A stretch of 64,000 nt of DNA from assembly GCA_964489045.1 (NCBI GenBank), contig CAZAXI010000002.1, forward strand, positions 21,375 to 85,374, read 5' to 3'. Origin of the DNA: an uncultured Granulicella sp. (GTDB lineage: Bacteria; Acidobacteriota; Terriglobia; Terriglobales; Acidobacteriaceae). The stretch's first letter is position 1; each line of letters begins with the position of its first letter. A program made the position numbers and the translations under genes. Under the pieces are notes generated by a model. It saw nothing but the letters and a program-made list of their open reading frames with translations. It was not told the DNA's origin and did no database searches. This document shows positions 33,269-61,607 of the stretch, in pieces.

Positions 33269-33358
33269 GGAAGAGTGGCCGAGTGGTTGATGGCTCCAGT
33301 CTTGAAAACTGGCGTACCTGCAAGGGTACCGGGGGTTCGAATCCCTCCTCTTCCGCCA
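33269..33358 (+). tRNA. tRNA-Ser (anticodon TGA)
   Basis: GGAAGAG acceptor stem, CCAGT-CTTGAAA-ACTGG anticodon arm, long variable arm, GTTCGAATC, GCCA end. Confidence 0.97.
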
Positions 33359-33423: not shown

Positions 33424-34020
33424 TCAGCGGGGTCCGAGGCGGAAGGTGAATCCGGTGCTGATGCGCAGATCGTTCTGGAGGTTGTTCTGCGCGTTGGGAA
33501 CGTAGGAGTGCACCCAGTCCGCTTCGATGATGGTCCAGCCGAAGTGTGGGTAGAGGGTTGTGCTGACGCCGCCGCCAACGCTGAACGCTGCGCCTCTGAC
33601 GTTCTGCACCGCCGCGTAGCTGGAGAACTCCTGCGAACCGCCGCCGAGGACCTGGGCGTAGGGGACGTAGCGCTTGAGGAACGGGTGGAACCTGTAGCGC
33701 GGGCCGAAGAGATAGTTGAAGACGGTGATTGACTGGGTGGTGGCGCCAACAGTGTTGGCGTGCGCGGCCGCGAGGTCCGCGACGACACCAAAGCCGTGGG
33801 GCATATTGAAGACCGCCGAGCCATATCCGCCGAAGGCCGAGAAACAGCCGCACTGCGCGGGAGGCGCGTTGGCGAAAAGAGAAAAATACCCCCCGGTGAT
33901 CTCCAGCACCGGGGTCTGGCCGGGGTCAAGGCCAAACGGCTCCGGTGCGTGGGTTTGCGCGGAGACCATTGCCGAGAGTGCGAGGAAAGCGGTAAGCAGA
34001 ATTGTCTTGTCGAATCGCAT
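33424..34020 (-). CDS. Small outer-membrane beta-barrel protein with a CGC motif
   Basis: Signal peptide, alternating aromatic/Gly strands, YLFGPRY, C-terminal RISTGFTFR. Starts 10 bp after the giant gene. Confidence 0.8.
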   Translation of the reverse strand: MRFDKTILLTAFLALSAMVSAQTHAPEPFGLDPGQTPVLEITGGYFSLFANAPPAQCGCFSAFGGYGSAVFNMPHGFGVVADLAAAHANTVGATTQSITVFNYLFGPRYRFHPFLKRYVPYAQVLGGGSQEFSSYAAVQNVRGAAFSVGGGVSTTLYPHFGWTIIEADWVHSYVPNAQNNLQNDLRISTGFTFRLGPR

Positions 34021-34030
34021 CTGTCTTCTC

Positions 34031-37000
34031 CTACTGCACAGTCAGGCTGACGGTGGTGGTTTCCTGGAGCGAGCCACTGGTTCCGACGACAGTGACCGTA
34101 TAGGTCTGGGGAGCGGGACCAAAGTAGCCTCCGCCGCATCCGCTGATTGCCAGGGCGGGAAGAATGGCAAGCACGGCCAGGCCGAGGAGCATCCAGCGTT
34201 GAGTGGAGCGGCGGAGCCGGCGGCCGGCGGCGAGTCCCAGCAGCGGTAGACCGGCAAGCACGGCGAGCAAGGGCACAGGATTCTGCCGATGCGGCTCAGG
34301 AGTAGCCAGGCGGGCCAGGCCGGTGGACGTCTGGATGGACATCACGCTGGGTGCGCCTGCGCTTCCAGGGGTTACCGCGGGCGGTTGGAACGAGACCTGC
34401 GCGCCCGCGGGAAGGCCGGTGGCCGAGAGCGTGACCAGGTTGTTGAAGCTTCCTCCAAGCGGCACGATGTTGAGGTTGTACTGGGCCACCGCGCCCGGCT
34501 GGATGCTGGCAGCCGGCGTCGAAGAGTTGACGGCGTAGATTCCGGCGCTTCCCGTGCCGGTGAGCGTGGCCGATTGCGGCGAGCCGGCGGCGTTGTCGGC
34601 GACTGAGATCGCAGCGGTGAGGCTGGCTGCCGAGGCCGGGGTGAACGTGACCGTGATGGTGCAGGTCGCTCCCACGGCTAGCGAACTACCGCAGTTATTG
34701 GTCTCGCCGAAGCTGCTGGCGTTGGCGCCGGTGACGGAGATGCTGGTGATGGTCAGAGCGGTGTTGCCGGGATTGGACAGGGTCAGGGGTAGCGTCGACG
34801 AAGTATTGATGGTGGTGCTGGGGAAGGCGAGCGGGTTGGGGGTGAGTACGGCTTGAGGAACCAGCGGCGCAGTCCCGGTGCCGGTGAGGGTGGCCGACTG
34901 CGGCGAGCCGGTGGCGTTATCGGCGACTGAGATCGCAGCGGTGAGGCTGGCTGCCGAGGCCGGGGTGAACGTGACCGTGATGGTGCAGGTCGCTCCCGCG
35001 GCTAGCGAGCTACCGCAGTTATTGGTCTCGCCGAAGCTGCTGGCATTCGTGCCCGTCACTGAGATGCTGGTGATGGTGAGGGCTGCGGTTCCGGGATTCG
35101 ACAGCGTCATGGGCAAGGCTGTCGCCGGAGTGCCGACCAGCGTGTTGGGGAAGGCGAGCGGGTTGGGGCTGAGCACGGCTTGAGGCGCAGTTCCGGTGCC
35201 GGTGAGGGTGGCTGACTGCGGTGAGCCGGTGGCGTTATCGGCAACCGAGATCGCAGCGCTGAGGCTGCCTGCGGATGCGGGCGTAAAGGTGACGGTGATG
35301 GTGCAGGTTGCGCTCGCGGCCAACGAAGAGCCGCAGTTATTGGTTTCGCCGAAGCTGCTGGCATTGGTACCGGTGACAGCAATGCTAGTAATGGTGAGGG
35401 CTGCGGTGCCGGGGTTCGACAGGGTGATGGGCAATGCGGTCGCCGCGGTGCCCACTCGCGTGCTTGGGAAGGCCAGTGGATTGGGGGCGAGCATAGCCTG
35501 CGGCTGAGTCCCGGTGCCGGTGACGGTGGCTGACTGCGGCGAACCGGTCGCGTTGTCGGCAACCGAGATCGCAGCCGTGAGACCGCCGGTCGACCCGGGC
35601 GTGAACGTGACTGTGATCGTGCAGTTCGCCCCCGCGGCAAGCGAGCTGCCGCAGTTGTTCGCCTGCCCAAAGCTACTGGCGTTAGTCCCCGTCACCGAGA
35701 TGCCGGTAATGGTGAGGGCAGCAGTGCCAGGGTTCGACAGCGTCATGGGCAGCGCCGTCGCCGCTGTGCCGACCAGCGTGCTGGGGAAGGGCAGCGGGTT
35801 GGGGCTCAGCACAGCCTGCGGGGCAGTTCCAGTGCCCGTGATCACGGCAGACTGCGGCGAGCCGGTCGCGTTATCCGCAACCGAGATGGCAGCAGTAAGG
35901 CTGCCCGTGGACCCCGGAGTAAACGCGACGGTGATGGTGCAGGTTGCTCCCGCGGCTAGCGAACCACCGCAGTTATTCGACTGCCCAAAGCTGCTGGCAT
36001 TGGTGCCCGTCACCGAAATGCTGGTGATGGTCAACGCGGCGTTGCCGGGATTGGACAGCGTCATCGGCATGGTTGATGCCGGAGTGCCGACCAACGTGCC
36101 GGGGAATGCCAGTGGATTGGGGCTGAGCACAGCCTGAGGCGCAGCCGCCGGGATACCCGTTCCGCTGAGTGTGATCGTGACCGGCGCGGGCGCGGCGCCT
36201 CCGCCTGAGCTAGAGTAGGGGACGGTCGCGGTGACGTTGTTGTAGCTCTGCGCTAAGGTAGGCGTGAAGGTAACGCTGAGGTTGCAGCTTGCGCCGACGG
36301 CGATGCCTGTGGTGCAGGTGCCGAGCCCAACGGAGTAGACGGAGTTGCCGGAAACGGGAGTGCCGAAGGTGGCGGTGTAGAGGTCGCCGTTGTTGGTGAG
36401 GGTGATGGTCTGGGCGGCGCTGGTGGTGTTCACGATCTGATTGGGGAAGGTCAGAGAGGGTGACGGGGGAGTTACGTACACGCCGTAGGCGAATGCCGTG
36501 AGCGCGATTGTCTGGGTTGTGCTGGTGGTGTTCAGCGAGTTGCTGGTGACGGTGATGCTGCCGCTGAAGACGCCGGCGTGGGCCGGCGTCACCACGACGG
36601 CGATCTGGCAGAGTGCTCCAGGCGCGACCGTGCCGCCGTTGCTGCAGTTAGTGCCGGTTGGCGCGGTCTGGATGCTGAACGGATTGCCGGTGATGGCGAT
36701 GTTCGAGATGGTCAGGGTCTGGTTGCCGCCGTTGTAGATGGTGGCGATCTGCTGCGGGCTTGCCGTGCCCAGCGCCTGAGACTGTTCTCCGAACGCGATC
36801 AGCCCTTGCGTCCGGTCCACCTTGTCGAGGTTGGTGTAGTTGCCGACGTAGACGGTGCCATCGGGAGCTATCGACATTCCGAGCGGCGATGCGGTGGAAT
36901 CGAGGTATGCCAAGGCGGTCGAGTAGCTGGATGCAGCCAATTCGGCAACTCCGCCGAGGGTATAGCGGGTTGCATATACGGTGTCTGCGGGGTCGACCCC

Positions 37001-40000
37001 AATGCCTTCGCCCGCACCGACGGTATTGATCTGGGACTGGACTCCACCTGAGGTGATCTCATTGATTTCGTAGCCGCCGACGAAGAGATTCTCATTGCTG
37101 TCGACGATGAGGTTGGACGCCTGGGTGTTGGCCGGAGTGATGAGGGTGGTTGCTGCTGTGCCCGTGCCAACGATGGGAACCGTATAGACGTGTACGTAGT
37201 CAGTCTCGTAGATATTGCCGGTGTTGCCTACGCCGAGCGATTGGATGTAGGTGTTCGGAACGGGGAAGGGCACGGAGCCCTGGATGGCCTGGACGGTGTC
37301 GTAGGTCTTGGTCGGGCCATTGTAGGTCTGGTCGGCGATATAGAGAACGCCGGCGCCATCAATGCCGATACCGCGCGGGGAGTTCAGCCCCGTGACTGGG
37401 AGGGTGCCAACTACTCCGGCTCTGGTGACGGTGTAGATGGTGTTGGAGTTATCACCCAGAATGTAGACGGTCCCATTCTCGTCGACGATGGAGGTGTAGA
37501 GGTAGTTGGCATTGTTGAGAATTGGATTGGTGATTACGCCGGGCTGCACCATCGAGAACGGCCCCTGACCGATGCCATAGATCAGCAGCGTCGCCAGGCG
37601 CGTGGTTCCGCTCATCAGGAAGATGGCGTCCCTGCGGCCGCCGGGATACTGGGGCTGGAAGGTGACCGGGACCGAGCAGGTCTCGCTGCCCACCGCGCCA
37701 GTACAACTTACGGCCCCGATGCTGTAGCTCAGGCCGTAGTGCAGCGTGGCCGTGGGCGTAAACCCGGCGCCGTAGCCATTCATCTGGAAGGTCGCGGTGA
37801 GTGTCTGCGCCGACGCCAGCGGGATGCCTACCGGAGCGGGGTTGAAGACCAGCGGCGACGGAGCCACCACGTTGGCGGCAAGCCCGGTCCCGGTGAGCGT
37901 AATCGACTGTGGCGAGTTGCCGGCGTTGTCGGACACGGTGAGGCTGGCGGTGTTCGCGCCGGTGGCGGTTGGCGTGAAGTTGAGCGAGATATTGCAACTG
38001 GCGCCGGCCGCCAGCGTCGTTCCGCAAGCACTGCTGTTCAAGCCGAACGCGTTTGCATTGGTCCCGGTGACCGAGATGGAGATACTCGACAAGGTCGCGT
38101 TGCCGGTGTTCATCAGCACCGCAATCATGGAGGACGCGCTGGTGGTATTGATGGTCTGATTCCCGAAGGCAACCGGCGAAGGCGTGAGCGAGACCACGGG
38201 CGCAGGAATGGAGACACCGGTGCCGGCAAGTTTGATGGTCTGCGCCGCGAGCGTGCCGTTGCTGTTGACCGCGATCGCGCCGGTGTATGCGATCGCCGAG
38301 GTTGGGGTAAAGGTGACGGTAAGGGTGCAGGTCGCACCCGATGCAAGCGAGGTGAGACCCACGCAGGTGCCGCCGGTAACGGCAAACGCTCCCGTCGCCG
38401 TATAGGTCGTCTGCGAAAGCGTTAGCGTCGCGTTGCCGGTGTTCTCGAACGTGACCGTTTGCGGTGAGCTGGTGTTGCCAACATTCACGCTGCCGAACTG
38501 CAGATAGCCGGCCGGCCCCGAAGACATCACCGCGTCCGTCGAGAGGTTGTAGCCGTAATCCGGAATGATCAGATCGCCGTTGCTGTCCATAGCCGGAATA
38601 CCGATCCCGCCGATCTGGGCTGCGGTCGCCTCGCCGCCGGTGCTACCGGAGCCGCTACCGGCGACGGTGGTGATGTTGCCATTTACAGCCACCTTCCGCA
38701 CGGCATCAAAGCCCGGGGGATTGCCATTCGAATCCGACGCGATGAAGATGTCGCCGGCCAGGTCGACGGCGACTGCCGTGGCGTAGATCTCGGCGTTGGT
38801 CGCGGCTGCGCCATCGCCCATATCGCCCGCGGTGCCATTGCCTGCGACCGTGGTAATCATCCCCGTCGATACGGTGATCTTGCGGATGCGGTTGTTGTTG
38901 GTGTCCGCGATGTAGACGTTGCCGGCTGTATCAGTGGCAACGGCGCTCGGGAAGTTCACCTCGGCGGTGTTCGCAGCGATGTTGTCGCCGTTGTAGCCAG
39001 GTGTGCCCGAGCCGCTGGTGCCGAGTACGCCGGCGACAATAGTGGTCGCCCCAGAGGAGGCGGCAACCTTCAGGACAAGCGACGAATTGGTGCACGCAAT
39101 ATACAGGTTGTTCGATGAATCGAAGGCAATGCCTTCCGGTCCTGGGATGACCGTGTTGGGCGCGTTGGCGCCGGTGAAGAAGCCGTTGCCGGTCCCGGCA
39201 TAGGTGGTGATAACGCCGGTGGACGGCACCACCTTGCGGATGCGGAAGTTGCCGTTATCGGCGATATAGACGTTGTTTGAAGAATCGATCGCGATCCCAA
39301 TCGGGTTGCTCAGATGAGCCAAGGTGGCTTGCCCGTTGTCTCCGCTAAAACTGCCGGGGCCGTAACCGGGGACGCCGGCGAACGCCGTGATGTTGCCGTT
39401 AACGTCGAATTTGCGAACGTAATTTGCTCCGGAATCGACCACGTAGATATTTCCCAGGGAATCCTGGGCGACGGCGGCGGGCGAGTCGAAGGTGGCTAAC
39501 AGCGCTGATCCGCCATCTCCCGTGCCATTCACGGTCCCCGAGCCCGTTCCCGCGATTACGTTCAACTGCGACGGAGTGAACTGAAGCTGAGCTACCTGCG
39601 AGCTTTGTGTGACGACCACAGTTCGCTGCACCTGCGGCGCGGCGGAGTAGCTGGAGTTTCCGGCCTGGTTGGCGTCGATAACGAAGGTACCGGCGCTGGT
39701 GACCGTCAGCGTGCTGCCGGTAATGCTGCCGGTGCCGGTGCTAGTGCCGTCGATGGTGAAGACGACCGGGTTGCCGGATGCGCCTCCAGTGGCGACCAGA
39801 GGAATGGTCAGTCCCGAGGAGTAGGTCACCGGAGTTGTGGGTTGGGTGAAGCTGATGGTCTGCGGGGTCAGCGAAGCGATGCCTGTTCCGGTGAGCAAAA
39901 AACTCTGCGTAGCGTCATTCGAGTTTTCATACGGAATATCCTCGACCACGTAGAGATTATCGTCGGTGAATGTAAGCTGGCCGGACAGTGCGCCACTCGT

Positions 40001-42511
40001 CTGGGGAGCGAAGCTGATCAACACGCTGCATACACCGCTAACTGGAATGACGCCCGGGTTGCTGGCGGTTTGGGGGATGTTGGGACAGGCGTTTGTGGCG
40101 CCGGTCGCCCAGGTCCAATTCGCACTGATCGCGGGATTGATTCCTGAGGGGGATGGGATTTCCAGCGTGAGCGGCGCATTCCCTTTGTTTTCGACAAAGT
40201 AGGTGTAGGGGTCGGGAGCGCTTTGGCCGACGTTGGTGGTGCCGAGCCAGCTCCAGGAGGACGGAGTGTTGAAATCGAATCGATAGACAACTGTTCCGTC
40301 GGAGGCAAAGACATTCCCGTTCCCGTCGAGTCCCAGACCAAAGCTTGAACTGAAACCGCCCCAATTGCTGATGATTGTGGGCGAAGAGGGGATGACACCG
40401 TTGACGGCCTGGATTTCGACAAGGCCCTCAGTGCCATCCGATTCCCAAACGTTGCCCGCCGCATCGACTGCCAGTTCTTCCGGACTGGCCAGACCGCAAT
40501 AGACCCTGTTGATTGTCGGCGATGCGGGAACTTGGCCTGAAAACGCCGGGATCTCATACAGGCAGGTGTCAGTGCTGTTTCTGGGTGTGAAAAAGATGTC
40601 GCCGTTCTGATCAACGGCCAGAGCGCCGGGATTGGTGCTGGTTTCGATGGAGCGAATTGTGGGCGAGCTGGGAATCGAGCCGCCAACGGCAACGATCTCG
40701 TGGAGGCCCCCGGAATCGCCCACAAAGACATCGCCCAGACCGTCGATGGCGGTTGCACTGGGAGTCACCCATCCCGAACCGAGCGCGACGATCGTGGGCG
40801 AGGCAGGGATGACGCCGCCAATGGCCTCGGCCTCGAGGATCCGGCTGGAGCCGGCGTCATTCCAAATCAGGTCGCCGGCTCCGTCGATGGCGATGGAGCT
40901 GGGAAGGTTGGCCGGCGCGACCGTCTTCTGAGTCTGATAGGAAGGGGCGACCAGCTCGATGATTGCGTCGCCGGCCTGGTCGGCGATAAAGATATCGTGG
41001 TTCCTGTCGACAGCGACACCCTCGGGCTTCGTAAGGCCCGCGCCCAAAGTCAGACCCGAGGTACCAATGGAACTGACGCTCCCGTAATACGTGCTGTTCG
41101 CGCTATAGTAGGCGGCGAAGTTGACCATGGGCCCCACACCCACGCCGAGCAGGGGTGCGGTAGCGATGGGCGCACCGCCGCTGGTGCTGTACAGTTGCAC
41201 CGCTCCCATCCGGGCACCGGGGTAGAGGGGCGTCAACTTGACGATGACAATGCAGGTGTCGGCGTTCGTGCCGTTGCCGTAGACATAACTCGTGCCGTTG
41301 GTGGTGCAGGTACCGGTGAGGTTATCTTTGAAGTCCTGGCTAGTGGCGCCTTGCGTATAGACGGCGGGCGCTGCGATGGTGCCTTGAGTTGGGAAGCCAA
41401 ACAGGAGGAATTGATACGGGTCCTGTGCGGATGTTTGGTTCGCCTCGGAACCTGCGCCGGTAGTCAACTGGCCGAAGAGTGCTGCCTGCGCCAGCTCGTT
41501 GACCTCGTCACCGCCGGTGAAGAAGACGTTATTGTGAGCATCGATAGCAATACTGCCGACATTCTGGGTATTGCCGACATTGTCGCTGCTTTCGAAGGTG
41601 ATGATTTGGGGGTTGCTGGGAACGCTGCCGCCCGAAGCCAGCATCTCCTTGAGCTCAGAATTCCCATTGTCCGCGACAAAGACATCGCCCTGTGAGTCGA
41701 CGGCCACGCCATAGGGTTTGCTGAATCCACTGCCGAGAACCTTGATGGTTGGATTGCTGGCGGGGATCGATCCGCCAACGGCAATCATTTCCTCGATTTC
41801 GCTGTTGTTCGTGTCCGCGACAAAGACGTCACCGCTCGCATCGACCCACACGCCTCTGGGATTGGAGAAATCGTACCAGGCAACGGCGGTGGGATTCGCG
41901 GGGATCGATCCGCCCACGGCCTCCAGCTCAATGACTCCGTCGTTATTGCCTTCTGTAACCCAAAGATTGCCCCTGCTGTCAAAGGCCAGCCCCCAGGGCT
42001 CGTCTGCCCCGGTCGAGATGGTGATGGTATTGATTGTGGGCGACGCGGGGATGGTACCGTTCACGGCGACGATTTCAAAGACTTTGCCGTTTTGGGTCGC
42101 ATCGGCCACAAAGACGTCGCCTACTGCGTCTACGGCGATGCCGGTTGGAAGGCCGAAGGTGCCGGAGGGCACATTCACTTGCTGCCCGGACGATTCGAGC
42201 GGAACGACTCCGTTCACCGCTGGAAACTCGATAAGTCCGTTAAACTCAGTCGTCACCCATAGATTTCCCTGAGCGTCGACGGCGGTCCCGAATGCAGAGG
42301 AGGTGCTGCTGCCAACCCACCGTTGTTCGCCCATGAAAACGGCCGACTGGGCATGAGCGATCAGCGCCGTGCCCAGGCCGAGGAATACCAGCAAGGCTCT
42401 GAGCAGCCAATTGCCGCGGCGGCGAAGCGCGCCCCGTGCGCGGACCTCGCGTATCGCGAGGGCTTCTTTGCACCGGTTGGTGTGCCCAACATGGAGAGCT
42501 TGGCCTGTCAT
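34031..42511 (-). CDS. Giant secreted surface protein: several NHL-type beta-propellers, ~10 Ig-like (choice-of-anchor D/ASH-like) domains, C-terminal TM hairpin with lipobox
   Basis: GGAAGGAG RBS before ATG 42511, signal peptide (AHA-Q), P.GiAvD..GnvfvAD repeats, Cys-paired Ig repeats, and RRLRR...LAISGCGGG near the end. Confidence 0.9.
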   Translation of the reverse strand: MTGQALHVGHTNRCKEALAIREVRARGALRRRGNWLLRALLVFLGLGTALIAHAQSAVFMGEQRWVGSSTSSAFGTAVDAQGNLWVTTEFNGLIEFPAVNGVVPLESSGQQVNVPSGTFGLPTGIAVDAVGDVFVADATQNGKVFEIVAVNGTIPASPTINTITISTGADEPWGLAFDSRGNLWVTEGNNDGVIELEAVGGSIPANPTAVAWYDFSNPRGVWVDASGDVFVADTNNSEIEEMIAVGGSIPASNPTIKVLGSGFSKPYGVAVDSQGDVFVADNGNSELKEMLASGGSVPSNPQIITFESSDNVGNTQNVGSIAIDAHNNVFFTGGDEVNELAQAALFGQLTTGAGSEANQTSAQDPYQFLLFGFPTQGTIAAPAVYTQGATSQDFKDNLTGTCTTNGTSYVYGNGTNADTCIVIVKLTPLYPGARMGAVQLYSTSGGAPIATAPLLGVGVGPMVNFAAYYSANSTYYGSVSSIGTSGLTLGAGLTKPEGVAVDRNHDIFIADQAGDAIIELVAPSYQTQKTVAPANLPSSIAIDGAGDLIWNDAGSSRILEAEAIGGVIPASPTIVALGSGWVTPSATAIDGLGDVFVGDSGGLHEIVAVGGSIPSSPTIRSIETSTNPGALAVDQNGDIFFTPRNSTDTCLYEIPAFSGQVPASPTINRVYCGLASPEELAVDAAGNVWESDGTEGLVEIQAVNGVIPSSPTIISNWGGFSSSFGLGLDGNGNVFASDGTVVYRFDFNTPSSWSWLGTTNVGQSAPDPYTYFVENKGNAPLTLEIPSPSGINPAISANWTWATGATNACPNIPQTASNPGVIPVSGVCSVLISFAPQTSGALSGQLTFTDDNLYVVEDIPYENSNDATQSFLLTGTGIASLTPQTISFTQPTTPVTYSSGLTIPLVATGGASGNPVVFTIDGTSTGTGSITGSTLTVTSAGTFVIDANQAGNSSYSAAPQVQRTVVVTQSSQVAQLQFTPSQLNVIAGTGSGTVNGTGDGGSALLATFDSPAAVAQDSLGNIYVVDSGANYVRKFDVNGNITAFAGVPGYGPGSFSGDNGQATLAHLSNPIGIAIDSSNNVYIADNGNFRIRKVVPSTGVITTYAGTGNGFFTGANAPNTVIPGPEGIAFDSSNNLYIACTNSSLVLKVAASSGATTIVAGVLGTSGSGTPGYNGDNIAANTAEVNFPSAVATDTAGNVYIADTNNNRIRKITVSTGMITTVAGNGTAGDMGDGAAATNAEIYATAVAVDLAGDIFIASDSNGNPPGFDAVRKVAVNGNITTVAGSGSGSTGGEATAAQIGGIGIPAMDSNGDLIIPDYGYNLSTDAVMSSGPAGYLQFGSVNVGNTSSPQTVTFENTGNATLTLSQTTYTATGAFAVTGGTCVGLTSLASGATCTLTVTFTPTSAIAYTGAIAVNSNGTLAAQTIKLAGTGVSIPAPVVSLTPSPVAFGNQTINTTSASSMIAVLMNTGNATLSSISISVTGTNANAFGLNSSACGTTLAAGASCNISLNFTPTATGANTASLTVSDNAGNSPQSITLTGTGLAANVVAPSPLVFNPAPVGIPLASAQTLTATFQMNGYGAGFTPTATLHYGLSYSIGAVSCTGAVGSETCSVPVTFQPQYPGGRRDAIFLMSGTTRLATLLIYGIGQGPFSMVQPGVITNPILNNANYLYTSIVDENGTVYILGDNSNTIYTVTRAGVVGTLPVTGLNSPRGIGIDGAGVLYIADQTYNGPTKTYDTVQAIQGSVPFPVPNTYIQSLGVGNTGNIYETDYVHVYTVPIVGTGTAATTLITPANTQASNLIVDSNENLFVGGYEINEITSGGVQSQINTVGAGEGIGVDPADTVYATRYTLGGVAELAASSYSTALAYLDSTASPLGMSIAPDGTVYVGNYTNLDKVDRTQGLIAFGEQSQALGTASPQQIATIYNGGNQTLTISNIAITGNPFSIQTAPTGTNCSNGGTVAPGALCQIAVVVTPAHAGVFSGSITVTSNSLNTTSTTQTIALTAFAYGVYVTPPSPSLTFPNQIVNTTSAAQTITLTNNGDLYTATFGTPVSGNSVYSVGLGTCTTGIAVGASCNLSVTFTPTLAQSYNNVTATVPYSSSGGGAAPAPVTITLSGTGIPAAAPQAVLSPNPLAFPGTLVGTPASTMPMTLSNPGNAALTITSISVTGTNASSFGQSNNCGGSLAAGATCTITVAFTPGSTGSLTAAISVADNATGSPQSAVITGTGTAPQAVLSPNPLPFPSTLVGTAATALPMTLSNPGTAALTITGISVTGTNASSFGQANNCGSSLAAGANCTITVTFTPGSTGGLTAAISVADNATGSPQSATVTGTGTQPQAMLAPNPLAFPSTRVGTAATALPITLSNPGTAALTITSIAVTGTNASSFGETNNCGSSLAASATCTITVTFTPASAGSLSAAISVADNATGSPQSATLTGTGTAPQAVLSPNPLAFPNTLVGTPATALPMTLSNPGTAALTITSISVTGTNASSFGETNNCGSSLAAGATCTITVTFTPASAASLTAAISVADNATGSPQSATLTGTGTAPLVPQAVLTPNPLAFPSTTINTSSTLPLTLSNPGNTALTITSISVTGANASSFGETNNCGSSLAVGATCTITVTFTPASAASLTAAISVADNAAGSPQSATLTGTGSAGIYAVNSSTPAASIQPGAVAQYNLNIVPLGGSFNNLVTLSATGLPAGAQVSFQPPAVTPGSAGAPSVMSIQTSTGLARLATPEPHRQNPVPLLAVLAGLPLLGLAAGRRLRRSTQRWMLLGLAVLAILPALAISGCGGGYFGPAPQTYTVTVVGTSGSLQETTTVSLTVQ
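34551..36139 (-). repeat. Five tandem ~318-bp intragenic Ig-domain repeats
   Basis: The unit PQAVLSPNPLAFP...NCGSSLAAGATCTITVTFTP...SPQSATLTGTG recurs five times with high DNA similarity. Confidence 0.92.
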
Positions 42512-43010: not shown

Positions 43011-44495
43011 TCATCTCAAGGGAGGATCGACTGGGTTGTACTTTTTTGCCAGCTCTGTCGTCGATACCACGTCCGCTGCCGGCGGATTGACCGCCTTCTC
43101 CACCTCCACTCCGAAGACGTAGCTGGGCCCGAACATGTTGCCGGTAAAGATCACCATCTTGTTGTCCGGCGTAAAGCGCACGTTGGGCTCTTCGTGGTAG
43201 TTGTGGTGCGACATGTTCACCAGGTGTTCGGTGTGGAATACGCCCGGCTGCCAGAAGTCCGGCGAGTTGACCGCAAGGGAATCACCCCGGATCAACTGCG
43301 GACGGAAGAGTTCGATCCAGTCGCAATCCCTGGCAGTTGGTCCCTGGCCGGGGAAGGTGCCGTCGCCGGTGAAGAGCGAGAGGTCCTTGGTGACGTTCAC
43401 ATGAATGGAGCCGTCGTCACGCCCGGTGTGATAGGCGAAGCGCTGACCGGTCTTCACGTTGTAGCCGGCGACGAAGTTGGAGTCGGCGTTGCGGGGATAG
43501 GCCCACTGGTACCAGATGGTTTCGCCGTCGGGGCCCCAGAACTCGTGGCCCCAGATCTCCATGTACATGGTGCGTTTGTGGATCAGCGTGTTATGGGTGC
43601 CGTCGGTGTGGATCATCCAGATGCGGTCGACATCCTGCCATATGCCCTCGTGGCAGTACATCAGCAGGCTGGGATCGGTGGGCGAGAACAACAGGTGGTT
43701 CACCCAGTCGGTGGAGTGGAGTAGCGGCTTGACGTCGCCGGGCTTCTCGCCATTCGGCCCCGGCTCCAGACGGAGCGTGAACAGCACGAGGGGAAGTTTT
43801 GCAGCGAGGCGCGCGACCATCATCGCGCTTTTGTTGGGGGGCTGATAGTGCGGCCCCTGAGCTGCGCTGCCAACGCGGTTGTCCGGATTCCCGGCCGCCC
43901 CGGGCGCTGCGCCCGCAGGCTGCGCGGGCAGGTTGGAGCCATATTGCCTCCCCGTATCGTCCCCTTCGACGTAGGTTCCGGCGATCAGCGTTTCGTCCGC
44001 ATTCACGCTGACAACCGACCAGCCGGAGGTGTTGGGTGGATGAGGCACCACCGCCAGTTTGCGCACGGCGCCAGTGTTGGTGTCAGCCTTGTAAACTGAG
44101 GTGACCTTGTTGGCATCCGTGGAAGTGTAGAAGACGCTGTTGGTCCTGTGGCCCGCAACCAGAATATGGACGACTCCGGGGTCGCGGCCACTCGCGGGGG
44201 TGCCGTCGGGCTGCTTCGGGTTGGCGACCAGGAGTTTGGTGGCGCGCGTGGCCAGATCCAGCACGTGAATGCCGTCCGGCGCGGAGTAGATCATCTGCTT
44301 CTCATCCGGCGTATAGCCGTTGATGTTGAAGTAGAAGGCGCCGGAGTTGGGCTCATCGCTCAGCCGCCACACCCGATGCCCGGTGTCCTTGTCCACCCAG
44401 GTCCTCGGCGGCATGGGGTCGCCCGGTTTGGTCTGCGCGATGCAGGCGAGCGGAAGCAGGATGACGGCGAGTGCAGCGGCTGGGTTGGGGCGCAT
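43011..44495 (-). CDS. Secreted oligogalacturonate lyase-family (PL22/Ogl-like) beta-propeller
   Basis: WVD..TGHRV.RL, WVNHLLFSP.DP..LMYCHEG.W, GHEFW, H.NV, EPNVRFTPD. Signal peptide present. Confidence 0.85.
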   Translation of the reverse strand: MRPNPAAALAVILLPLACIAQTKPGDPMPPRTWVDKDTGHRVWRLSDEPNSGAFYFNINGYTPDEKQMIYSAPDGIHVLDLATRATKLLVANPKQPDGTPASGRDPGVVHILVAGHRTNSVFYTSTDANKVTSVYKADTNTGAVRKLAVVPHPPNTSGWSVVSVNADETLIAGTYVEGDDTGRQYGSNLPAQPAGAAPGAAGNPDNRVGSAAQGPHYQPPNKSAMMVARLAAKLPLVLFTLRLEPGPNGEKPGDVKPLLHSTDWVNHLLFSPTDPSLLMYCHEGIWQDVDRIWMIHTDGTHNTLIHKRTMYMEIWGHEFWGPDGETIWYQWAYPRNADSNFVAGYNVKTGQRFAYHTGRDDGSIHVNVTKDLSLFTGDGTFPGQGPTARDCDWIELFRPQLIRGDSLAVNSPDFWQPGVFHTEHLVNMSHHNYHEEPNVRFTPDNKMVIFTGNMFGPSYVFGVEVEKAVNPPAADVVSTTELAKKYNPVDPPLR

Positions 44496-44714
44496 AGAAA
44501 CCTCTCCTTCGAATGGCGCGCCGGGATGAAAGACGCGACCGGTTGGATCAACGAATTCTCCAGGCACAATCGACAGCGCCGTCGCACAAATTGCACAAGA
44601 GTTATACACCGTTGAGCATTCGATGGGAAAATGTCAATCAGTACTAAAGCTGGCCGAGTGCCAGTTTGCAACTCTGAATAGACTGTCCAAAGTCTGCGTG
44701 CATTGAAAGGCGTG

Positions 44715-45290
44715 ATGAGAATCTTGATCGGGAAAAGTCGAGCTGTCCCGGTTCTCCTGGCTGCATCGCTGGCCATCATTGCACCTTGCGCTTTGGGACA
44801 GAATTCGACGAATCCTACGAGTCAACTAGAGGACGCTCATAAACAATACCTGGCCCTCTCGCTAGGAAACGGGCTCGAGCGAGGGTCAAACCAGAAAACC
44901 CTGAATCGCTACGGGGTCCCTTTCCTCGACGGAGCGCTGCCTCTCCAACCGGGCGGCACCGCTGAGGTGAGTGTCGGAGGCCGGGTGGGCCGCATCTTCC
45001 TGCTGGGGATGACGGATGTCAACGTGCCTACCACTACGGCGGCGGACCTTCAAGATGAGTCACTCCATCCCGGGTCGGGTGGAAGAAACTATCCCCCCTA
45101 TGGCTGGGCCGATCCGCGGGATTCTTCCTACCGCTTTTTTGTCGGCGAAGAACTCGCGCGAATTCGCCTGAACTATGCTGACGGCGCCACGCAGGTCTTC
45201 CCTCTTCTTCTGGGCGAAGGCGTCTGGTGGGGCCGCCCGTTCTACGACTTTCAGGAGCCCTTTCCCACGCATGCCGAATACAAGAAATAA
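44715..45290 (+). pseudogene. Secreted protein, probably a truncated N-terminal fragment of a larger carbohydrate-active protein
   Basis: Signal peptide plus a beta-sandwich-like segment (RIFLLGM...IRLNYADG...PLLLG). Stops abruptly 5 bp from the convergent gene's stop. Confidence 0.45.
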
Positions 45291-45295
45291 ACAAG

Positions 45296-47863
45296 CTAGC
45301 GATTCGACTTGCCCGGATACGAAATCTCAAATTCACTGTACACGTTACTATTTCCAACCGTGACGCCACCCGACCAGAAGGCGCCCGCTCCGCCAAATGA
45401 GTTTGGCGTAATGGTTCCTTCCAGCGACAGCGTTTCGCCATCTGTTGTGTTGGAGCCTTTGACGGTGAGCCTGGTTCCAACGACTGAAAGAGTGATGGTC
45501 GTGTTCGGCTTGAATACACCAGTAAAATCTTGCTGGTCGTTCAAGGGACGACCGACGCCGTCCTCGATCCTGTAAAGCTGGAACATGCACTTCCCGGTGG
45601 ACTGGATGGTCCTCCAGAAGCGCAGCGAGTAGCCGTTTCTGGTGCGCGGATCGTACTTGATGAAGATGTCGGCCCGCTCCATACGGGGGGTGTCGTCGGG
45701 CGATCCGGCAAGGGCAAAGCCCTGCCCGGCGTTCTTATCCGGCGACATCACCACCTTGACCGTCATGTCTCCGGTGGGTTCGTCCCGGTCGTAGATAAGC
45801 GCTGCATAAGGGTTCGCCACGCGCACGCCGTTAACGGTGGCAGGCTGCTCCGCCGGTGGGCTGGTCGAGCCAATGCCTCCGCGAGGCGCCGTTCCAGCAA
45901 GCCCGCTGATGCGCAGGCCGTAGCCGTTGACCAGGTTGTCTCCGGTGACCGGGGTCCAGGTGCCGATGATGGTCCACTCGCCGTTCTCGATGGTGGAGTT
46001 TTCCGTCGGCACAAAGTTGCGGAAGTTGGGATCGATCGTGGTCGAAGTCACGTTGGCGGCGACGATCGGCTTGCTCGCGGTGGCCACGACTTCCGGGCCG
46101 GCGTCGCTGATGTTGTGCTTGGGCTGGATGCTGACGCGGAGAACCTTGCCTACATCGCCGGCGGTAAGCGTGTAAGTACGCAGCGGCAGGTCGCCACGGC
46201 TTACGGCAACTGTGCGCGGACTTGCGCAGGTGGCGTCGTCGCACTGATACCAGGTAATCAGCGACTGGTCTTCACGGCCGCCCAGGTCCAGGGTGTAGTG
46301 CACCGCGACCTTGCCGTTAAAGGGCGCCGCCACCACTGGTCTGCTGGTGAACTTGGGCGGATCGATAAACGCCGGCTCGACGTTGACGGGGACCATGACC
46401 GAATAGCCGTCGGCGGCCTTCGCCTTGACGACGACCCACTCGGCGCGGCTGGTGTGGTTGTTGCCGGTGATGGTAACTGTGTTGCCCGTTGTCGAGCTGA
46501 GGTTGACCAGGTTGGAGGGCGTGGACCATGTGATGGTCGCATTCGCGCGTGCGGGGAATGGAGTAACGGTCATTGCCGCGCCGGTTGCACCGGTGCGCAC
46601 CGTAGGCGACACGATGCGGCTGAAGAAGGGACCTCCACCGGACCTGCCTGCGGCAGGCGCGGTACCGGCGATGATGGACATTTTGAAGACATCGCTGCCG
46701 TTGCTCTGGTACTGCGCGCGAACATTGGCCGGGTCCCAGTCGTCGACGGGACCGTTGGGGAGAGCGGCGCGCAGCAGGTTCCACGGGTTGAAGGCCTTCG
46801 CTTCCTCGTCGCTGAGTTCGCGTGAGAGGTGGTAGGTGGGAGGGCCGGCCTGGCTGTCCCGGATGCGCACCGGTTTGCCGCTCGGATCTTTCAGGCGATA
46901 GGTGAGTGAGTAGTAATTCTGGTGCGCGGCCGCATCTGCTATCCACGCCGCCCTGGCTGGCAGCACACAATCGATCAGCGTGTCGGGATTGCCGAAACTC
47001 TTCTCCGTATTGCCCTCACTGGTGTAGAACACCATGCCTTTCGAGGCCTTGAATACGGTGTTGATGAAGGTAAGTCCCTGAGAGGCCAAGCCGCCACTGC
47101 CGGTTGGGAAGTAAGCCTCGGAGTTCTTGAACACCGCTACCGGCCCACCACCGAAGACAATCAAGTCTTCGGTCCCCTCGACGAAGACGTTGGTGAAGTA
47201 GGCCCGCGTGGTCGAAATCACGGTTGTGTCCAGCCGGCCTAGAAACGCGACGTGGGAGTAAACATGCTTGTCGCCCGACATCTCGATGACCACACCCTGG
47301 GTGATGACAGGCGAGCGCATCTTGAGGTTCTTGGAGGGGTCGCCGGGATATTCGTAGTCGAGATTGCAGTAGTCGACCACGCTGAGGTTCATCATGGTGA
47401 ATCCGGTGGCGTTGATGACCAATATGAAACCGTCGTTCGTTGCCCCCTCCTTCATGCCGCGGTTGTCGGCGAGCACGACCTTGCGGCGGTCGTCAGTCAG
47501 GCCGAGGAGGGTGATGTAGTTTTTGGTGATCTGCATGCTGTAGGGCGCGGATTCGGCCGCGTGCAGAAAATAGACGTCGGGCTTGATGCCAATCACGGTC
47601 GGCTTCCCGGGCGTGCCGGCCGGAGCCGCGGCATACGCTGCCTGCAACGTCCTAAACTTTTTGTCGGCCGGGTCGTCTTGCGAAAGGCTGCTGTCCACGA
47701 GGTAGTCGTAGGCGTAGTTGGCGGTGTCGAACTTCACGCCGGTGTAGCCGTTGAACGGAGCGCCGTCACGCAGATTGTCCTGCGCATGGGCGAGCGGCGA
47801 GAAAGTCGTCGCGGTCACTAACAGAATCCCAGCAACTTCCAATATCCACGAGCGCAGCTTCAT
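45296..47863 (-). CDS. Secreted pectin methylesterase-like (pectin-lyase fold) multidomain protein
   Basis: FRTLQAA, IGIKPDVY, ITLLG, FLGRLDT, FVEGTEDLI pattern of CE8-like beta-helices, followed by Ig-like and lectin-like domains. Confidence 0.65.
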   Translation of the reverse strand: MKLRSWILEVAGILLVTATTFSPLAHAQDNLRDGAPFNGYTGVKFDTANYAYDYLVDSSLSQDDPADKKFRTLQAAYAAAPAGTPGKPTVIGIKPDVYFLHAAESAPYSMQITKNYITLLGLTDDRRKVVLADNRGMKEGATNDGFILVINATGFTMMNLSVVDYCNLDYEYPGDPSKNLKMRSPVITQGVVIEMSGDKHVYSHVAFLGRLDTTVISTTRAYFTNVFVEGTEDLIVFGGGPVAVFKNSEAYFPTGSGGLASQGLTFINTVFKASKGMVFYTSEGNTEKSFGNPDTLIDCVLPARAAWIADAAAHQNYYSLTYRLKDPSGKPVRIRDSQAGPPTYHLSRELSDEEAKAFNPWNLLRAALPNGPVDDWDPANVRAQYQSNGSDVFKMSIIAGTAPAAGRSGGGPFFSRIVSPTVRTGATGAAMTVTPFPARANATITWSTPSNLVNLSSTTGNTVTITGNNHTSRAEWVVVKAKAADGYSVMVPVNVEPAFIDPPKFTSRPVVAAPFNGKVAVHYTLDLGGREDQSLITWYQCDDATCASPRTVAVSRGDLPLRTYTLTAGDVGKVLRVSIQPKHNISDAGPEVVATASKPIVAANVTSTTIDPNFRNFVPTENSTIENGEWTIIGTWTPVTGDNLVNGYGLRISGLAGTAPRGGIGSTSPPAEQPATVNGVRVANPYAALIYDRDEPTGDMTVKVVMSPDKNAGQGFALAGSPDDTPRMERADIFIKYDPRTRNGYSLRFWRTIQSTGKCMFQLYRIEDGVGRPLNDQQDFTGVFKPNTTITLSVVGTRLTVKGSNTTDGETLSLEGTITPNSFGGAGAFWSGGVTVGNSNVYSEFEISYPGKSNR

Positions 47864-48037
47864 GATCTCTCCTATCACCCAGAGAATTGGGCCTGATCGC
47901 TTCGGCACGGATTCGCATGAATTCTACCGCCCCGAGAGGCTTTGTAAGACCACCGCCGCAGTTTCTGCCGAAAAACGTCGCAATCGCGTTCTGTGCTGGG
48001 TTCAACCGCGCCATCGGGAGTCTTGCTTGTCGATTTT

Positions 48038-48180
48038 TCAGGGCACACCTTGCTTCTCTACTGTGCGTTTCTTCGATTGGATCATCTGAGCACTCAATGC
48101 GCTCAGAAGAGCTAGTCCGACGGAGACCCAGATCGCGTCGCGATATCCGGAAACCACTGCGCCCCGAGCACTGCGCGCCG
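48038..48180 (-). pseudogene. Possible C-terminal remnant of an MFS (DHA2-like) transporter
   Basis: AVVSGYRDAIWVSVGLALLSALSA resembles the last TM helix of DHA2 transporters. No upstream gene body. Confidence 0.3.
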
Positions 48181-48298
48181 CCAGCTCCTCACACGGAGAT
48201 TTGATGGGCATCATCATTCGCCGTTCAGTTCTGACGGCACCCAGCATCCAAAGAATGCAGCCGGCGCTTGAGTCGCATGAAGTGCAAGCGAATGTTCC

Positions 48299-51277: not shown

Positions 51278-51308
51278 ATCAGCCGATCCGGTTCGATGAC
51301 GTCGGTTA

Positions 51309-52646
51309 TTACTGCGGGAAGGGAACGAACATATCCGCGCAGGAGTCGGGTTTGCCCTCCGAGGGCTTGCCGGTGATGGTGACATCGGTGGCAGGCGTGG
51401 GGAGTTGGATGTTGCTGCCGCCCGCGCCGTAGGTGATGTCCGCGTAGTCGAATTTGTAGGTGTAGGGCTTGGCCGCGTTGGCCGCGTCGGTTAGCCAGAC
51501 GCCGTCGAGGGTGATCTGCGCGCGGTGGTCGTGGTCGTAGCCGTCGAAGAGGATGGTGGGATCTCCGCCGCCGCCGGAGACGCGCACGTTGCGCAGGGTG
51601 ACATCGCGGAAGGTGGGCGGCGAGGGACCCTTGACCGGCCCGTTGGAGGCGTAGGCCATGGTGATGTCGATGGGGCGCTTGACCGCGTTGCGGATGCAGA
51701 TGTCGCTGTAGACCACGTCGTGCACCAGGCCGCCGCGCGTGCCCATGCTCTTGATGCGGATGCCGGAGTCGGGGCCGTCGAGCGAGAGATCGAAGACGCG
51801 CAGCTTGCTGACGCCGCCGTTGGTTTCGGAGCCGATGGACATGCCGTGGCCCCAGTAGAAGTGGTTGTGGCTGACCGTCATGTTGGTGAGCTCGCCTGGA
51901 CCGCCGCCCTTGATGGCAACGTTATCGTCGCCCGCGCGGATGTAGCTGTGCGTGATGGTGATGTTCTTCGAGCCTCTGCCGGGATCGATGCCGTCGGTGT
52001 TGGGGGACCCGCGCTGCTGCGTGTCGATTTTGACGCCCCAGACGGTGAAACCGTCGCCGCCGTTATAGACAACGTGGAAGTTGGGCGAATTCTTCAGCGT
52101 AATGCGATACAGCGTGAAGTTGTCCGCGTGGTTGCAGACGATGAGGCGGGAGAGCGGTCCGCCGGCGTGGTCCCATGCGCTGATGGTCTTGCCGACATAC
52201 TTCTCGCCGCCGCGGCCGTCGATGACGCCGTCCCCCATCACTCCGGCGCCGGAGACGTCGGTGACGCTGATGAGGGGTGGCCCGAGTAGAGACTGGTCAA
52301 GGGTCTGGAAGAGGGTAGCGCCTTTGTCGACCACCAGGGTGATGCCCTCGCGAAGCTGCAGCGGGCCGCTCAAGAACGCATTTGCGTTGTTATGCACCTC
52401 GAGCGCGACAGCCTTGCCTTTGGCGCACGAGTCGATCGCCTTCTGGATGCGGCCGGTGTCGAGTTTGGACTCGTCGGCCGGGGCGAGGGTGTTGAAATTG
52501 CCATCGAAAACCGAGGTAAGGTGCGCATCGAGCGTCGCGCAGAAGGGCGGAATCTTCGGCTCGGTGACGTTGCGCGTGTCCTGCGCCAAGGCGGTGGAAC
52601 AGAGCGCAGTCGCGAAAACAATGACGGACGACAATAACCGGTTCAT
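51309..52646 (-). CDS. GH28 polygalacturonase
   Basis: All four GH28 motifs present: NTDG, GDD, GHG, RIK. Signal peptide. Confidence 0.93.
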   Translation of the reverse strand: MNRLLSSVIVFATALCSTALAQDTRNVTEPKIPPFCATLDAHLTSVFDGNFNTLAPADESKLDTGRIQKAIDSCAKGKAVALEVHNNANAFLSGPLQLREGITLVVDKGATLFQTLDQSLLGPPLISVTDVSGAGVMGDGVIDGRGGEKYVGKTISAWDHAGGPLSRLIVCNHADNFTLYRITLKNSPNFHVVYNGGDGFTVWGVKIDTQQRGSPNTDGIDPGRGSKNITITHSYIRAGDDNVAIKGGGPGELTNMTVSHNHFYWGHGMSIGSETNGGVSKLRVFDLSLDGPDSGIRIKSMGTRGGLVHDVVYSDICIRNAVKRPIDITMAYASNGPVKGPSPPTFRDVTLRNVRVSGGGGDPTILFDGYDHDHRAQITLDGVWLTDAANAAKPYTYKFDYADITYGAGGSNIQLPTPATDVTITGKPSEGKPDSCADMFVPFPQ

Positions 52647-52835
52647 GGAGACTCCTTCGGCTTAACTTCGCTTGCTTCTTTGGATTCCAGTGACCTGCTC
52701 CGCGAGGAAGCGGGAGGTCTCAACCGGAATCTCCTTTGTCATCCCTGGTTCGCTCGAATTATAGTTTTTTCAACCCTTCACTGTATTGAATGAGTGCCCG
52801 GCGCGTTCCCTGCTGACCGTGTAGCCAAAGAGAGC

Positions 52836-54173: not shown

Positions 54174-54205
54174 TCCTGTCAGACCATTTCCCGGCGAAGC
54201 AGACC

Positions 54206-55327: not shown

Positions 55328-55526
55328 TCTCTTTCCTCCCGATCGACGTGCAGCCATGCAAGTGTAAATGATCGAACTTGCTGGTGGACCTGGCCGGGGT
55401 GGAAACAGCCGTCTCTCCGACACTCGCAACCTGGGAGGTCTGACCGGGGACACACCACCTGCCGGTCGTGGAAATTGAATCCCTGCAAAGTAACTCCCTG
55501 CTCCGTTCTGCCAAGGGCAGACACGG

Positions 55527-61592: not shown

Positions 61593-61607
61593 CGCTTGCT
61601 CCCCGTC

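Follow-up and report, generated by a model that had tools for sequence, protein, structure and literature searches.

The window (the whole 64,000-nucleotide stretch of DNA analysed) carries on its minus strand a gene for a giant exported protein of 2826 amino acids (34031..42511; ORF and domain searches) and, beginning 10 bp past its stop codon, an ORF for a small outer-membrane beta-barrel (33424..34020). The giant ORF starts with ATG, immediately preceded on its 5' side by a GGAG ribosome-site-like stretch, and in its product an extended basic region comes first, followed by a hydrophobic stretch and AHA|Q, which we read as a predicted Sec/SPase I signal peptide with a long basic n-region and a putative cleavage site (residues 1-54; 42350..42511, minus strand, as are all features below), in agreement with the Sec-type signal noted in an earlier, sequence-only reading of this DNA. 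The protein comprises NHL beta-propellers, 11 choice-of-anchor D (ASH/HYDIN-like) Ig domains and a lipo-invert tail; no enzyme family of NCBIfam scored above its cut-off, and Pfam contributes propeller- and Ig-type models only. Judging by this domain content, the protein may be called an adhesin.

The tail consists of hydrophobic helix 1 (residues 2746-2763; 34223..34276), a predicted stop-transfer segment that is Pro/Gly-rich in the family, a basic loop RRLRRSTQR (34196..34222), predicted to be cytoplasmic and to form the n-region of an internal signal, hydrophobic helix 2 (residues 2773-2788) with the lipobox ISGC (together 34136..34195), a tether CGGGYFG (34118..34138), which carries a barrel-associated G-[FY] motif, and two closing beta-strands; the layout claimed by the sequence-only reading (helix, basic stretch, helix, ISGC-GGG, two strands) is thus present. 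The Cys (codon 34136-34138) is residue 2792 of 2826, with 34 residues beyond it, and ISGC fits the strict lipobox [LVI][ASTVI][GAS]C. The tail had also been taken as undescribed, which is not the case because it is catalogued in NCBIfam as NF058595 ('lipo-invert putative C-terminal anchoring domain', invert_tail): the last 179 residues scored 71.8 bits (cut-off 37; 73.3 bits on re-scoring) and matched model positions 2-113 of 113 up to the final residue of the protein; the family was not listed for the whole 2826-residue protein. The tail is a member of this family, whose model begins where the split Ig part ends and whose name and one-line description, on which the comparison is based, mention no strand complementation, barrel or G-[FY] motif. 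No published description of the lipo-invert tail, of NF058595 or of the system as a whole was found in searches of titles and opening lines of abstracts that covered subscription journals thinly, and the main text of the myxosortase preprint (10.1101/2023.06.07.544157) does not mention Acidobacter, invert or lipoprotein.

The last Ig domain is split into an N-terminal part (residues 2656-2730; 34322..34546) and the last two beta-strands (34034..34105), both assigned by an AlphaFold model, a fold search and a homologue. In the model of the tail, pLDDT reaches 91-97 in the block of residues 11-80 and 95-98 in the last two strands, and model residues 6-175 align with one Ig domain of 1EUT (404-502; Z 12.2, rmsd 2.1, 97 aligned residues, VIA-align), while a hairpin-free profile matches an uninterrupted 93-residue domain in the homologous C171 protein (E 1.2e-11). 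At the level of the modelled structure and its intact homologue, this shows that the final two strands are part of the Ig domain before them, which is interrupted by the two-helix hairpin, and supports the earlier suggestion that they complete it.

The genome contains 28 matches to NF058595 (25 above the cut-off) and 27 closed ORFs that bear the tail. The Cys on which the earlier proposal turned is conserved in all 27 and forms the sole invariant column among 26 aligned paralogues, in which mean column identity is 27%. All 25 genomes sampled from the family have the tail, with between 3 and at least 14 matches apiece (scoring stopped at 14), and its carriers include giant proteins as well as some enzyme-like proteins. 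Across 153 distinct tails the hydrophobic-basic-hydrophobic profile recurs, with at least two basic residues in the loop in every tail (153/153, median 5), a strict lipobox in 74, a relaxed form in 108, and [GAS]C in 153/153, a figure that is partly circular because the script favoured [GAS]C when picking the Cys. Pro occurs in helix 1 of 116 tails and in helix 2 of 20 (each of 153). Inspection of the tail consensus found no conserved Lys/Asp/Asn set hinting at an isopeptide bond, and a PDB sequence search with the tail profile returned weak matches, the best of which (signal region of the lipoprotein LpqE, E 0.046) serves as a lead only.

The downstream gene encodes an OmpA/NspA-like barrel of 198 amino acids with a signal peptide and eight strands (model pLDDT 89; fold search) and contains the stretch ANAPPAQCGCF, as had been reported for a barrel gene at this position. 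Its fold matches NspA/OmpA/OmpW at Z 17-19 (VIA-align), e.g., 1P4T (Z 18.9, rmsd 2.8, 152 aligned residues) and 3NB3 (Z 17.5). A Legionella T4SS porin heads the structural matches (Z 19.7); in the best 50 of these, no PDB title names a barrel-lipopeptide complex. A PDB sequence search with the barrel profile found nothing. The barrel itself has no Pfam match, 48 of 72 homologues match PF13505 at E<=0.01, and matches below the cut-off were obtained for TIGR04565 (weak, 35 of the 72) and for NF033755. A single-protein search for related loci returned four close Acidobacteriaceae loci and one weak match, and the ESM Atlas unnamed or generic Acidobacteriota clusters only. In three wetland metatranscriptomes (contigs only), one 505-nt contig bridges the gene junction (33674-34178), which proves neither transcription nor a single transcript.

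A barrel lies directly downstream of 4/27 tails in the genome and 15/129 tails in relatives; because so few tails adjoin one, it is not a general component of the tail, and the barrel as an obligatory partner of every tail was rejected. Seen from the barrel, the linkage is strong: among 60 assessable barrels of the subfamily (final cut 170 bits with profile A3, which itself includes 21 tail-linked barrels), 54 follow a lipobox gene, which encodes an internal tail in 40 cases and, in the other 14, an ordinary N-terminal lipoprotein of one of two unrelated domain families, and six top-scoring barrels have no lipobox partner. As a genetic linkage, the dedicated barrel partner first envisaged is supported for this subfamily but not for tails in general, most of which are barrel-less. 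Under the context-free profile A2, 16 barrels score at least 150 bits, of which 12 follow a tail and the other four follow N-terminal lipoproteins with the same motif, whereas below 130 bits a tail precedes 1/70 barrels. A 156-bit barrel (locus L254) follows a Pal-like lipoprotein without the motif.

The barrel partners are marked by G-[FY] within 8 residues past the Cys, present in 54/54 of them versus 4/135 barrel-less tails. The motif, noticed only after the tails had been grouped, was found by script in 20/21 linked tails (the 21st has it too, its Cys having been mis-picked) and in 4/135 unlinked ones; motif and barrel were paired in 11/11 cases of a hold-out set, and a motif-barrel prediction set in advance held at 16/20 loci. 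The tie between barrel and hairpin suggested earlier thus exists as a linkage, but it tracks the motif after the Cys, which N-terminal lipoproteins also carry, and not the hairpin itself. The counts are not independent, because linked tails cluster on the tree (four changes, at least two of them forced, in a quick tree of 115 columns). On the barrel tree, barrels with N-terminal lipoprotein partners form two separate groups amid those with tail partners. Among the residues that set linked barrels apart are N51, P54, C57, C59 and F60 in the region of loop 1 and N176 in loop 4; the CxC (Cys57, Cys59; 33844..33852), at loop 1 and the start of strand 2, is typical of partner-linked barrels and occurs in about 75-80% of them, and with roughly a quarter lacking it, CxC was rejected as their defining mark. 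That ordinary and internal-Cys partners share the same barrel and motif suggests that the internal Cys functions as that of a lipoprotein does and may be lipidated. The barrel likely reads a tether code after the Cys, presumably by binding it, and this barrel-motif result appears to be new.

We propose that Sec would export the large part of the protein until helix 1 stops transfer, and that the basic loop would stay in the cytoplasm and helix 2 re-export the Cys and the two strands, as general membrane topology suggests. Lgt would lipidate Cys2792 and LspA would cut before it, which we consider very likely; the genome has matches to one LspA, two Lgt-family and three rhomboid proteins. The predicted product, a 35-residue lipopeptide, would stay lodged in the Ig fold. 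The 2740-residue part would be freed by a second cut, within the Pro/Gly-rich helix 1 or ahead of it, for which a rhomboid is a candidate, and would then hang on the lipopeptide solely by strand complementation; this cut, needed for release from the inner membrane and absent from the earlier model, is the weakest step, and we lean only slightly towards it and the non-covalent attachment that follows. Under load, a junction of strands held together only by non-covalent contacts might prove weak. For the transfer of the complex to the outer membrane, and probably onward to the surface, we favour a general route over passage through the barrel, which with its eight strands is too narrow for folded domains. 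At its outer loops the barrel would bind Cys-x(0-6)-G-[FY] and, for a subset of the large proteins with a lipid anchor, act as a clamp for retention or reinforcement, a role that the observed linkage makes likely. The design would be that of a lipoprotein upside down, with the lipid at the C-terminal end and a free N-terminus projecting. For the model as a whole, i.e., an internal signal that yields a lipopeptide held in the Ig fold and docked by the barrel via G-[FY], we estimate a probability of about 0.5.

The hairpin might instead be a permanent inner-membrane anchor, with helix 1 uncut, the protein periplasmic and the lipopeptide just closing the last domain. In accordance with this, the uncharged run of helix 1 (median 18) is long enough for a membrane span, the region upstream of helix 1 showed no conserved cleavage motif among the tails, and no dedicated protease gene lies beside the tails examined (within 1.5 kb downstream). 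However, the outer-membrane barrel partner, common to ordinary lipoproteins, points to the outer membrane, Asp at +2, which in E. coli retains lipoproteins in the inner membrane, occurs in 0/153 tails, and proteins of 1000-4300 amino acids with Ig stalks and propellers would seem to resemble surface proteins, so that we regard a permanent anchor as unlikely. Such an anchor would allow lipidation of the Cys and even the LspA cut.

Rather improbable, too, is a barrel that goes beyond a clamp and serves as a threading or export partner: the same linkage data would fit, tethers linked to a barrel are short (mostly 33-41 residues beyond the Cys) and rich in Gly, and RcsF-OMP complexes provide a precedent (accessible text of PMC7857515), but the barrel is merely eight-stranded, most tails have none, the N-terminal lipoprotein partners have 900-1800 residues behind the tether, and in the case of CglB barrels were shown to be dispensable for export, according to the accessible text of PMC9946355. 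Common descent of a two-gene cassette whose products make no physical contact would agree with the clustering of linked tails and with the window pair and the C20 pair being near-copies (75% barrel identity), but is highly improbable, since the motif is kept in two unrelated N-terminal lipoprotein families adjoining the same barrels, is missing from the barrel-less tails L003-L006 nested among linked ones, and lies in an otherwise unconserved linker of variable length.

Compared with known systems, the proposed lipopeptide anchor resembles canonical Lgt/LspA lipoproteins in having a basic region, a hydrophobic helix, [GAS]-C and a Gly/Ser-rich tether, ordinary lipoproteins having the same barrel and motif as well; it differs in a signal placed 2770 residues into the protein, with a Sec signal and a stop-transfer helix ahead of it, and in a predicted product that is a 35-residue peptide carrying its passenger non-covalently. 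In MYXO-CTERM/myxosortase and other CTERM systems there is no lipobox: the invariant Cys is followed by one helix and a basic end and stays on the passenger, lipidation and then intramembrane cleavage being proposed (accessible text of PMC11980579); C-terminal sorting of many proteins per genome and the invariant Cys are common to both, whereas the present tail has a second helix, which the lipobox follows, and folded strands beyond the Cys. CTERM sorting-signal models gave no match to the tail at E<=1, and a CTERM signal (MYXO-, PEP- or GlyGly-CTERM) was rejected, a second helix and 35 residues following the basic cluster. The Myxococcus barrels GltA/B/H retain the surface lipoprotein adhesin CglB and are not its export pore, which resembles the clamp proposed here for an outer-membrane barrel, and the sub-cut-off TIGR04565 matches make homology no more than possible; they belong, however, to a gliding platform of several proteins whose lipoprotein is of the ordinary kind, and the accessible text mentions no tether code (PMC9946355).

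An autotransporter (type V) was rejected, a stop codon and a separate signal peptide lying between the genes and no autotransporter family being matched. Slam is a larger barrel with 14 strands and an N-terminal TPR region; the barrel here has 198 amino acids, eight strands and no extra domain, and Slam/type 11 secretion was likewise rejected. RcsF uses general OMPs through BamA, and RcsF-OMP and Slam/T11SS resemble the proposed pair as lipoprotein-barrel partnerships for surface exposure (accessible text of PMC7857515), but here the gene of an eight-stranded barrel adjoins that of its putative client. Incomplete folds that are filled by strand complementation are known from type V pili and chaperone-usher systems, the type V pili of Bacteroidota being built from a lipoprotein precursor by a second proteolysis and a donor strand from another subunit into a polymer (accessible text of PMC4789730); the model proposed here likewise has a lipoprotein precursor, a second proteolysis and strand complementation, but a single chain supplies the two halves, and nothing points to a polymer. 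A type V pilus was rejected: there is one gene, the strands complete their own domain in the model, and no pilin family matched.

Soils are rich in Acidobacteriota, whose envelope biology has received little study. We tentatively suggest, as a possibility that we rate below even odds, an uncharacterised surface-display pathway in Acidobacteriota, in which the housekeeping enzymes Lgt and LspA would process an internal signal, the resulting lipopeptide would recapture its own giant passenger by strand complementation, and paired eight-stranded barrels would read a short code after the lipid-Cys (G-[FY] in this barrel family, GGL-x-[IV]-x-GTP in a second one; Cys N-terminal or internal) and dock or export their clients. 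The predictions of the model are carried by few elements, i.e., one Cys, one two-residue motif and one small barrel. If the model is true, Lgt/LspA chemistry would extend to internal signals, a protein would be lipid-anchored by its C-terminus, and a sequence code together with a candidate receptor would be at hand for the retention of large lipoproteins at the surface of diderm bacteria.

The giant ORF (2826 aa; window 34031-42511 (-)) is followed by the barrel ORF (198 aa; window 33424-34020 (-)), which begins 10 bp past its stop, and both contain the motifs from which the sequence-only reading had derived an internal lipobox coupled to a beta-barrel. After a long Sec-type signal, the giant protein carries NHL propellers together with 11 choice-of-anchor D Ig domains; the Ig domains immediately before the tail, i.e., the C-terminal segment from a split Ig domain through a helical hairpin and the lipobox Cys to the last two strands, are near-identical tandem copies (window 34563-36190 (-)), which suggests a recent expansion of the stalk. 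Acidobacteriaceae MAGs hold close relatives of the giant-barrel pair. A tRNA-Ser gene (window 33269-33358 (+)) runs toward the barrel gene, whose stop is 65 bp away, and is a possible island boundary. Upstream of the giant gene, window 43011-55453 (-) holds a cluster that by eye looks suited to using pectin and uronates (ORFs resembling lyases, methylesterases and polygalacturonases, an MFS transporter and an enolase-family enzyme), and window 59742-64000 (-) three successive NHL/Vgb-like propeller ORFs, two with an N-terminal lipobox and the third leaving the window.

The tail is a real, family-wide and catalogued putative anchor. The last 106 residues of the giant protein match NCBIfam NF058595, titled 'lipo-invert putative C-terminal anchoring domain' (71.8 bits; cut-off 37), so the tail is not the undescribed system it had been taken for; a literature search, with most subscription journals outside its reach, found no paper for the names of NF058595. 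The genome under study (G000) has 28 matches, 25 of them exceeding the cut-off, and 27 are ends of closed ORFs, the remaining one being partial. In a survey of 301 genomes of the phylum, including the unpublished G023, each of the 25 further genomes from this family has a tail match, and among up to 14 candidates per genome only 32 of the 301 genomes pass the cut-off. Tail-bearing genes stand in tandem on contigs C13 (15457-24425 (-)) and C46 (9273-19648 (-)), proteins of 1140-1160 aa that by eye resemble TonB-dependent receptors come after the tails at C46:9273 and C35:10583, and the tail region is frameshifted in two relatives (L298:9400-10010 and L308:6700-7060), once before helix 1 and once just before the lipobox, by assembly error or inactivation.

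The terminal strands had been proposed to complete the preceding Ig domain, and an AlphaFold model of the last 175 residues (26-row alignment), a fold alignment and an intact homologue agree in predicting this. Residues 11-80 have a block pLDDT of 91-97, the two final strands 95-98 and the hairpin region 53-79, and model residues 6-175 align to single Ig domains (top, 1EUT 404-502; Z 12.2, rmsd 2.1, 97 residues). A profile of just the Ig part picked up a single unbroken 93-residue domain in the genome, in an ORF of contig C171 (E 1.2e-11), where the two strands come straight after with no hairpin between. Because the model aligns to one Ig domain and an intact domain exists, the hairpin is predicted to be an insertion into a loop of the Ig domain. 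The C171 protein (C171:5894-9142 (-)), a variant absent from the matches of the NF058595 search of the genome, has the intact copy ahead of a split one; its post-Cys segment is shorter, apparently with one strand, and the other strand seems placed before the hairpin.

The Cys sits 34-71 residues from the end in 27/27 tails of this genome, and its conservation, on which the lipobox proposal depended, is borne out by its being the sole invariant column across 26 aligned tails. Taken over this genome and its relatives, 153 distinct tails share a helix, a basic loop (median 5 Lys/Arg), a second helix and [GAS]-C, a count that is partly circular since the script favoured [GAS]C when choosing the Cys; 74 fit the strict lipobox and 108 a relaxed one, and Asp directly follows the Cys in none (0/153). 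Helix 1 is less hydrophobic than helix 2 and contains Pro in 116 of the 153 tails, versus 20 for helix 2; no motif upstream of helix 1 was found among them. The genome yields one match for LspA, two for the Lgt family, three for rhomboids and six for secretins, the second Lgt-family match (69.6 bits) lying within a 645-aa ORF (C139:4203-6140; locus L259).

A barrel lies directly downstream on the same strand of 4 of the 27 tails in this genome (of the 27, one has just 310 nt of contig remaining); two of the four barrels belong to the window barrel's subfamily and two to a second, distantly related family. The same holds for 15/129 loci in relatives, drawn from the best-scoring 150 of about 500 matches and including three with <450 nt of room and two weak matches from distant genomes. 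Since the genome has about 24 small-barrel ORFs, by estimate ~0.5% of its genes, barrels are enriched downstream of tails, though most tails have no adjoining barrel; the barrel is thus no obligatory partner of tails in general. With profile A2, made from barrel homologues with context ignored, 90 of the listed barrel loci were read: a tail precedes 12 of 16 barrels at >=150 bits, 1 of 4 at 130-150 bits (another has no room) and 1 of 70 below 130 bits, a set including L185 from the unpublished genome G302. The other 4 of the 16 come after large proteins whose lipobox is of the usual N-terminal kind. In a pooled count of 137 distinct barrels with profile A3, which contains 21 tail-linked barrels and is hence biased toward these, the 62 at >=170 bits comprise 40 after a tail (the script's 39 and L296), 14 after an N-terminal lipoprotein, 6 partnerless and 2 without room; a tail precedes 1/7 at 130-170 bits and 3/68 at 60-130 bits, where mostly 1.5 kb upstream was read, so N-terminal partners may escape.

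Linked tails share a motif in the tether, the residues right after the lipobox Cys (CGGGYFG, from Cys2792, in the giant protein). G-[FY] occurs within 8 residues past the Cys in 20 of 21 barrel-linked tails by script, and in the 21st with its Cys correctly placed; it occurs in 4/135 tails without a barrel, one of which, L127, has a linked tail of its own genome as its sister on the tree. All four N-terminal lipoproteins before A2 >=150-bit barrels carry it, and a crude scan found it in 8/165 lipobox-like ORFs in this genome. As the motif was noticed only after grouping, new data were used as a test: it was present in 11/11 new tails, two other families among them and some of them close orthologues, and a motif-bearing partner predicted in advance was borne out at 16 of 20 loci (7 of the 20 previously known to be tail-less), where 10 of the partners are N-terminal lipoproteins and 6 are tails (one of these tails carries a frameshift and has the motif in the altered frame); the other 4 loci had no partner. 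In the pooled set, 54/54 partners of barrels at >=170 bits have G-[FY], and at 130-170 bits one barrel follows a Pal-like lipoprotein lacking it. Longer tethers still with G-Y stand ahead of lower-scoring barrels (90-126 bits) at L055, L147 and L188, possibly a further subtype. Genes of the second barrel family, with an ALPT-like mature start, overlap the tail-gene stop codon (C46:13713-14354 and C3:637-1236 in this genome, L014 and L016; L110, L122, L144 and L119 elsewhere), and five of the six tails preceding them have GGL-x-[IV]-x-GTP after the Cys, which may be a second barrel-tether code and is a lead only, because these five make one clade.

The window barrel is modelled with 8 strands (pLDDT 89) in a fold resembling NspA, OmpA and OmpW (Z 17-19); PF13505 matches 48/72 barrel homologues, and some homologues bear an OmpA-like C-terminal extension, recognised by eye. 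Residues N51, P54, C57, C59, F60 and N176, conserved only in linked barrels, lie in or near loops 1 and 4, which point outward in the usual OmpA topology; R108 and R117 are likewise conserved only there.

Linked tails are clustered yet fall short of a single clade: a quick tree of 115 columns has 4 changes, of which at least 2 are forced. On the barrel tree, the N-terminal lipoprotein partners with the motif fall into two separate groups set among tail partners, and their domain families are unrelated (He_PIG repeats vs I-set Ig with an L-lectin-like domain), so that the partner type has switched at least twice with the motif retained. Because the motif stayed through these switches, our strongest argument, the internal Cys probably functions as a lipoprotein Cys and the barrel probably selects the tether. 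We give roughly even odds to the entire chain, in which the giant protein would be exported by Sec, the hairpin would insert into the membrane, the Cys would be lipidated before cleavage by LspA, a second cut would fall at helix 1, the passenger would be kept on the lipopeptide through strand complementation, and the product would be transferred to the outer membrane, where the tether would dock on the barrel. That the hairpin instead stays as a permanent inner-membrane anchor seems to us unlikely. As for the docking step of the favoured chain, folded domains cannot pass through an 8-stranded barrel, and for this reason a clamp is favoured over a pore. The same preference draws on the Glt barrels of Myxococcus, which retain the lipoprotein CglB and do not export it (PMC9946355). 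Threading by the barrel in the manner of RcsF (PMC7857515) is rather improbable, and a tail-barrel link through mere co-inheritance can be given little credence.

The tail belongs to NF058595 and, judged from its sequence, would work like an ordinary lipoprotein signal in a position that is not N-terminal. MYXO-CTERM lacks a lipobox and has the opposite topology (PMC11980579), and type V pilins donate strands between subunits (PMC4789730), unlike the tail. Neither the barrel subfamily nor its two client kinds nor the G-[FY] code was found among Pfam or NCBIfam names, or described in the literature searched, most subscription journals being outside its reach; the newly supported tail-barrel partnership is thus apparently new, the tail itself being catalogued. 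Other small barrels come right after N-terminal lipoproteins without G-[FY] (C43:21921-24371 and C34:10340-12520 in this genome), and the pairing of lipoprotein and barrel genes may be more widespread in the group. At L250-L252, L301-L304, L310 and L311, an N-terminal lipoprotein of ~1300-1850 aa (with He_PIG repeats in the one scanned) and then a barrel of the window subfamily form a conserved pair; the barrel is fused to an OmpA-like C-terminal extension in fully read cases, and the pair could serve as a cell-wall link for a surface lipoprotein.
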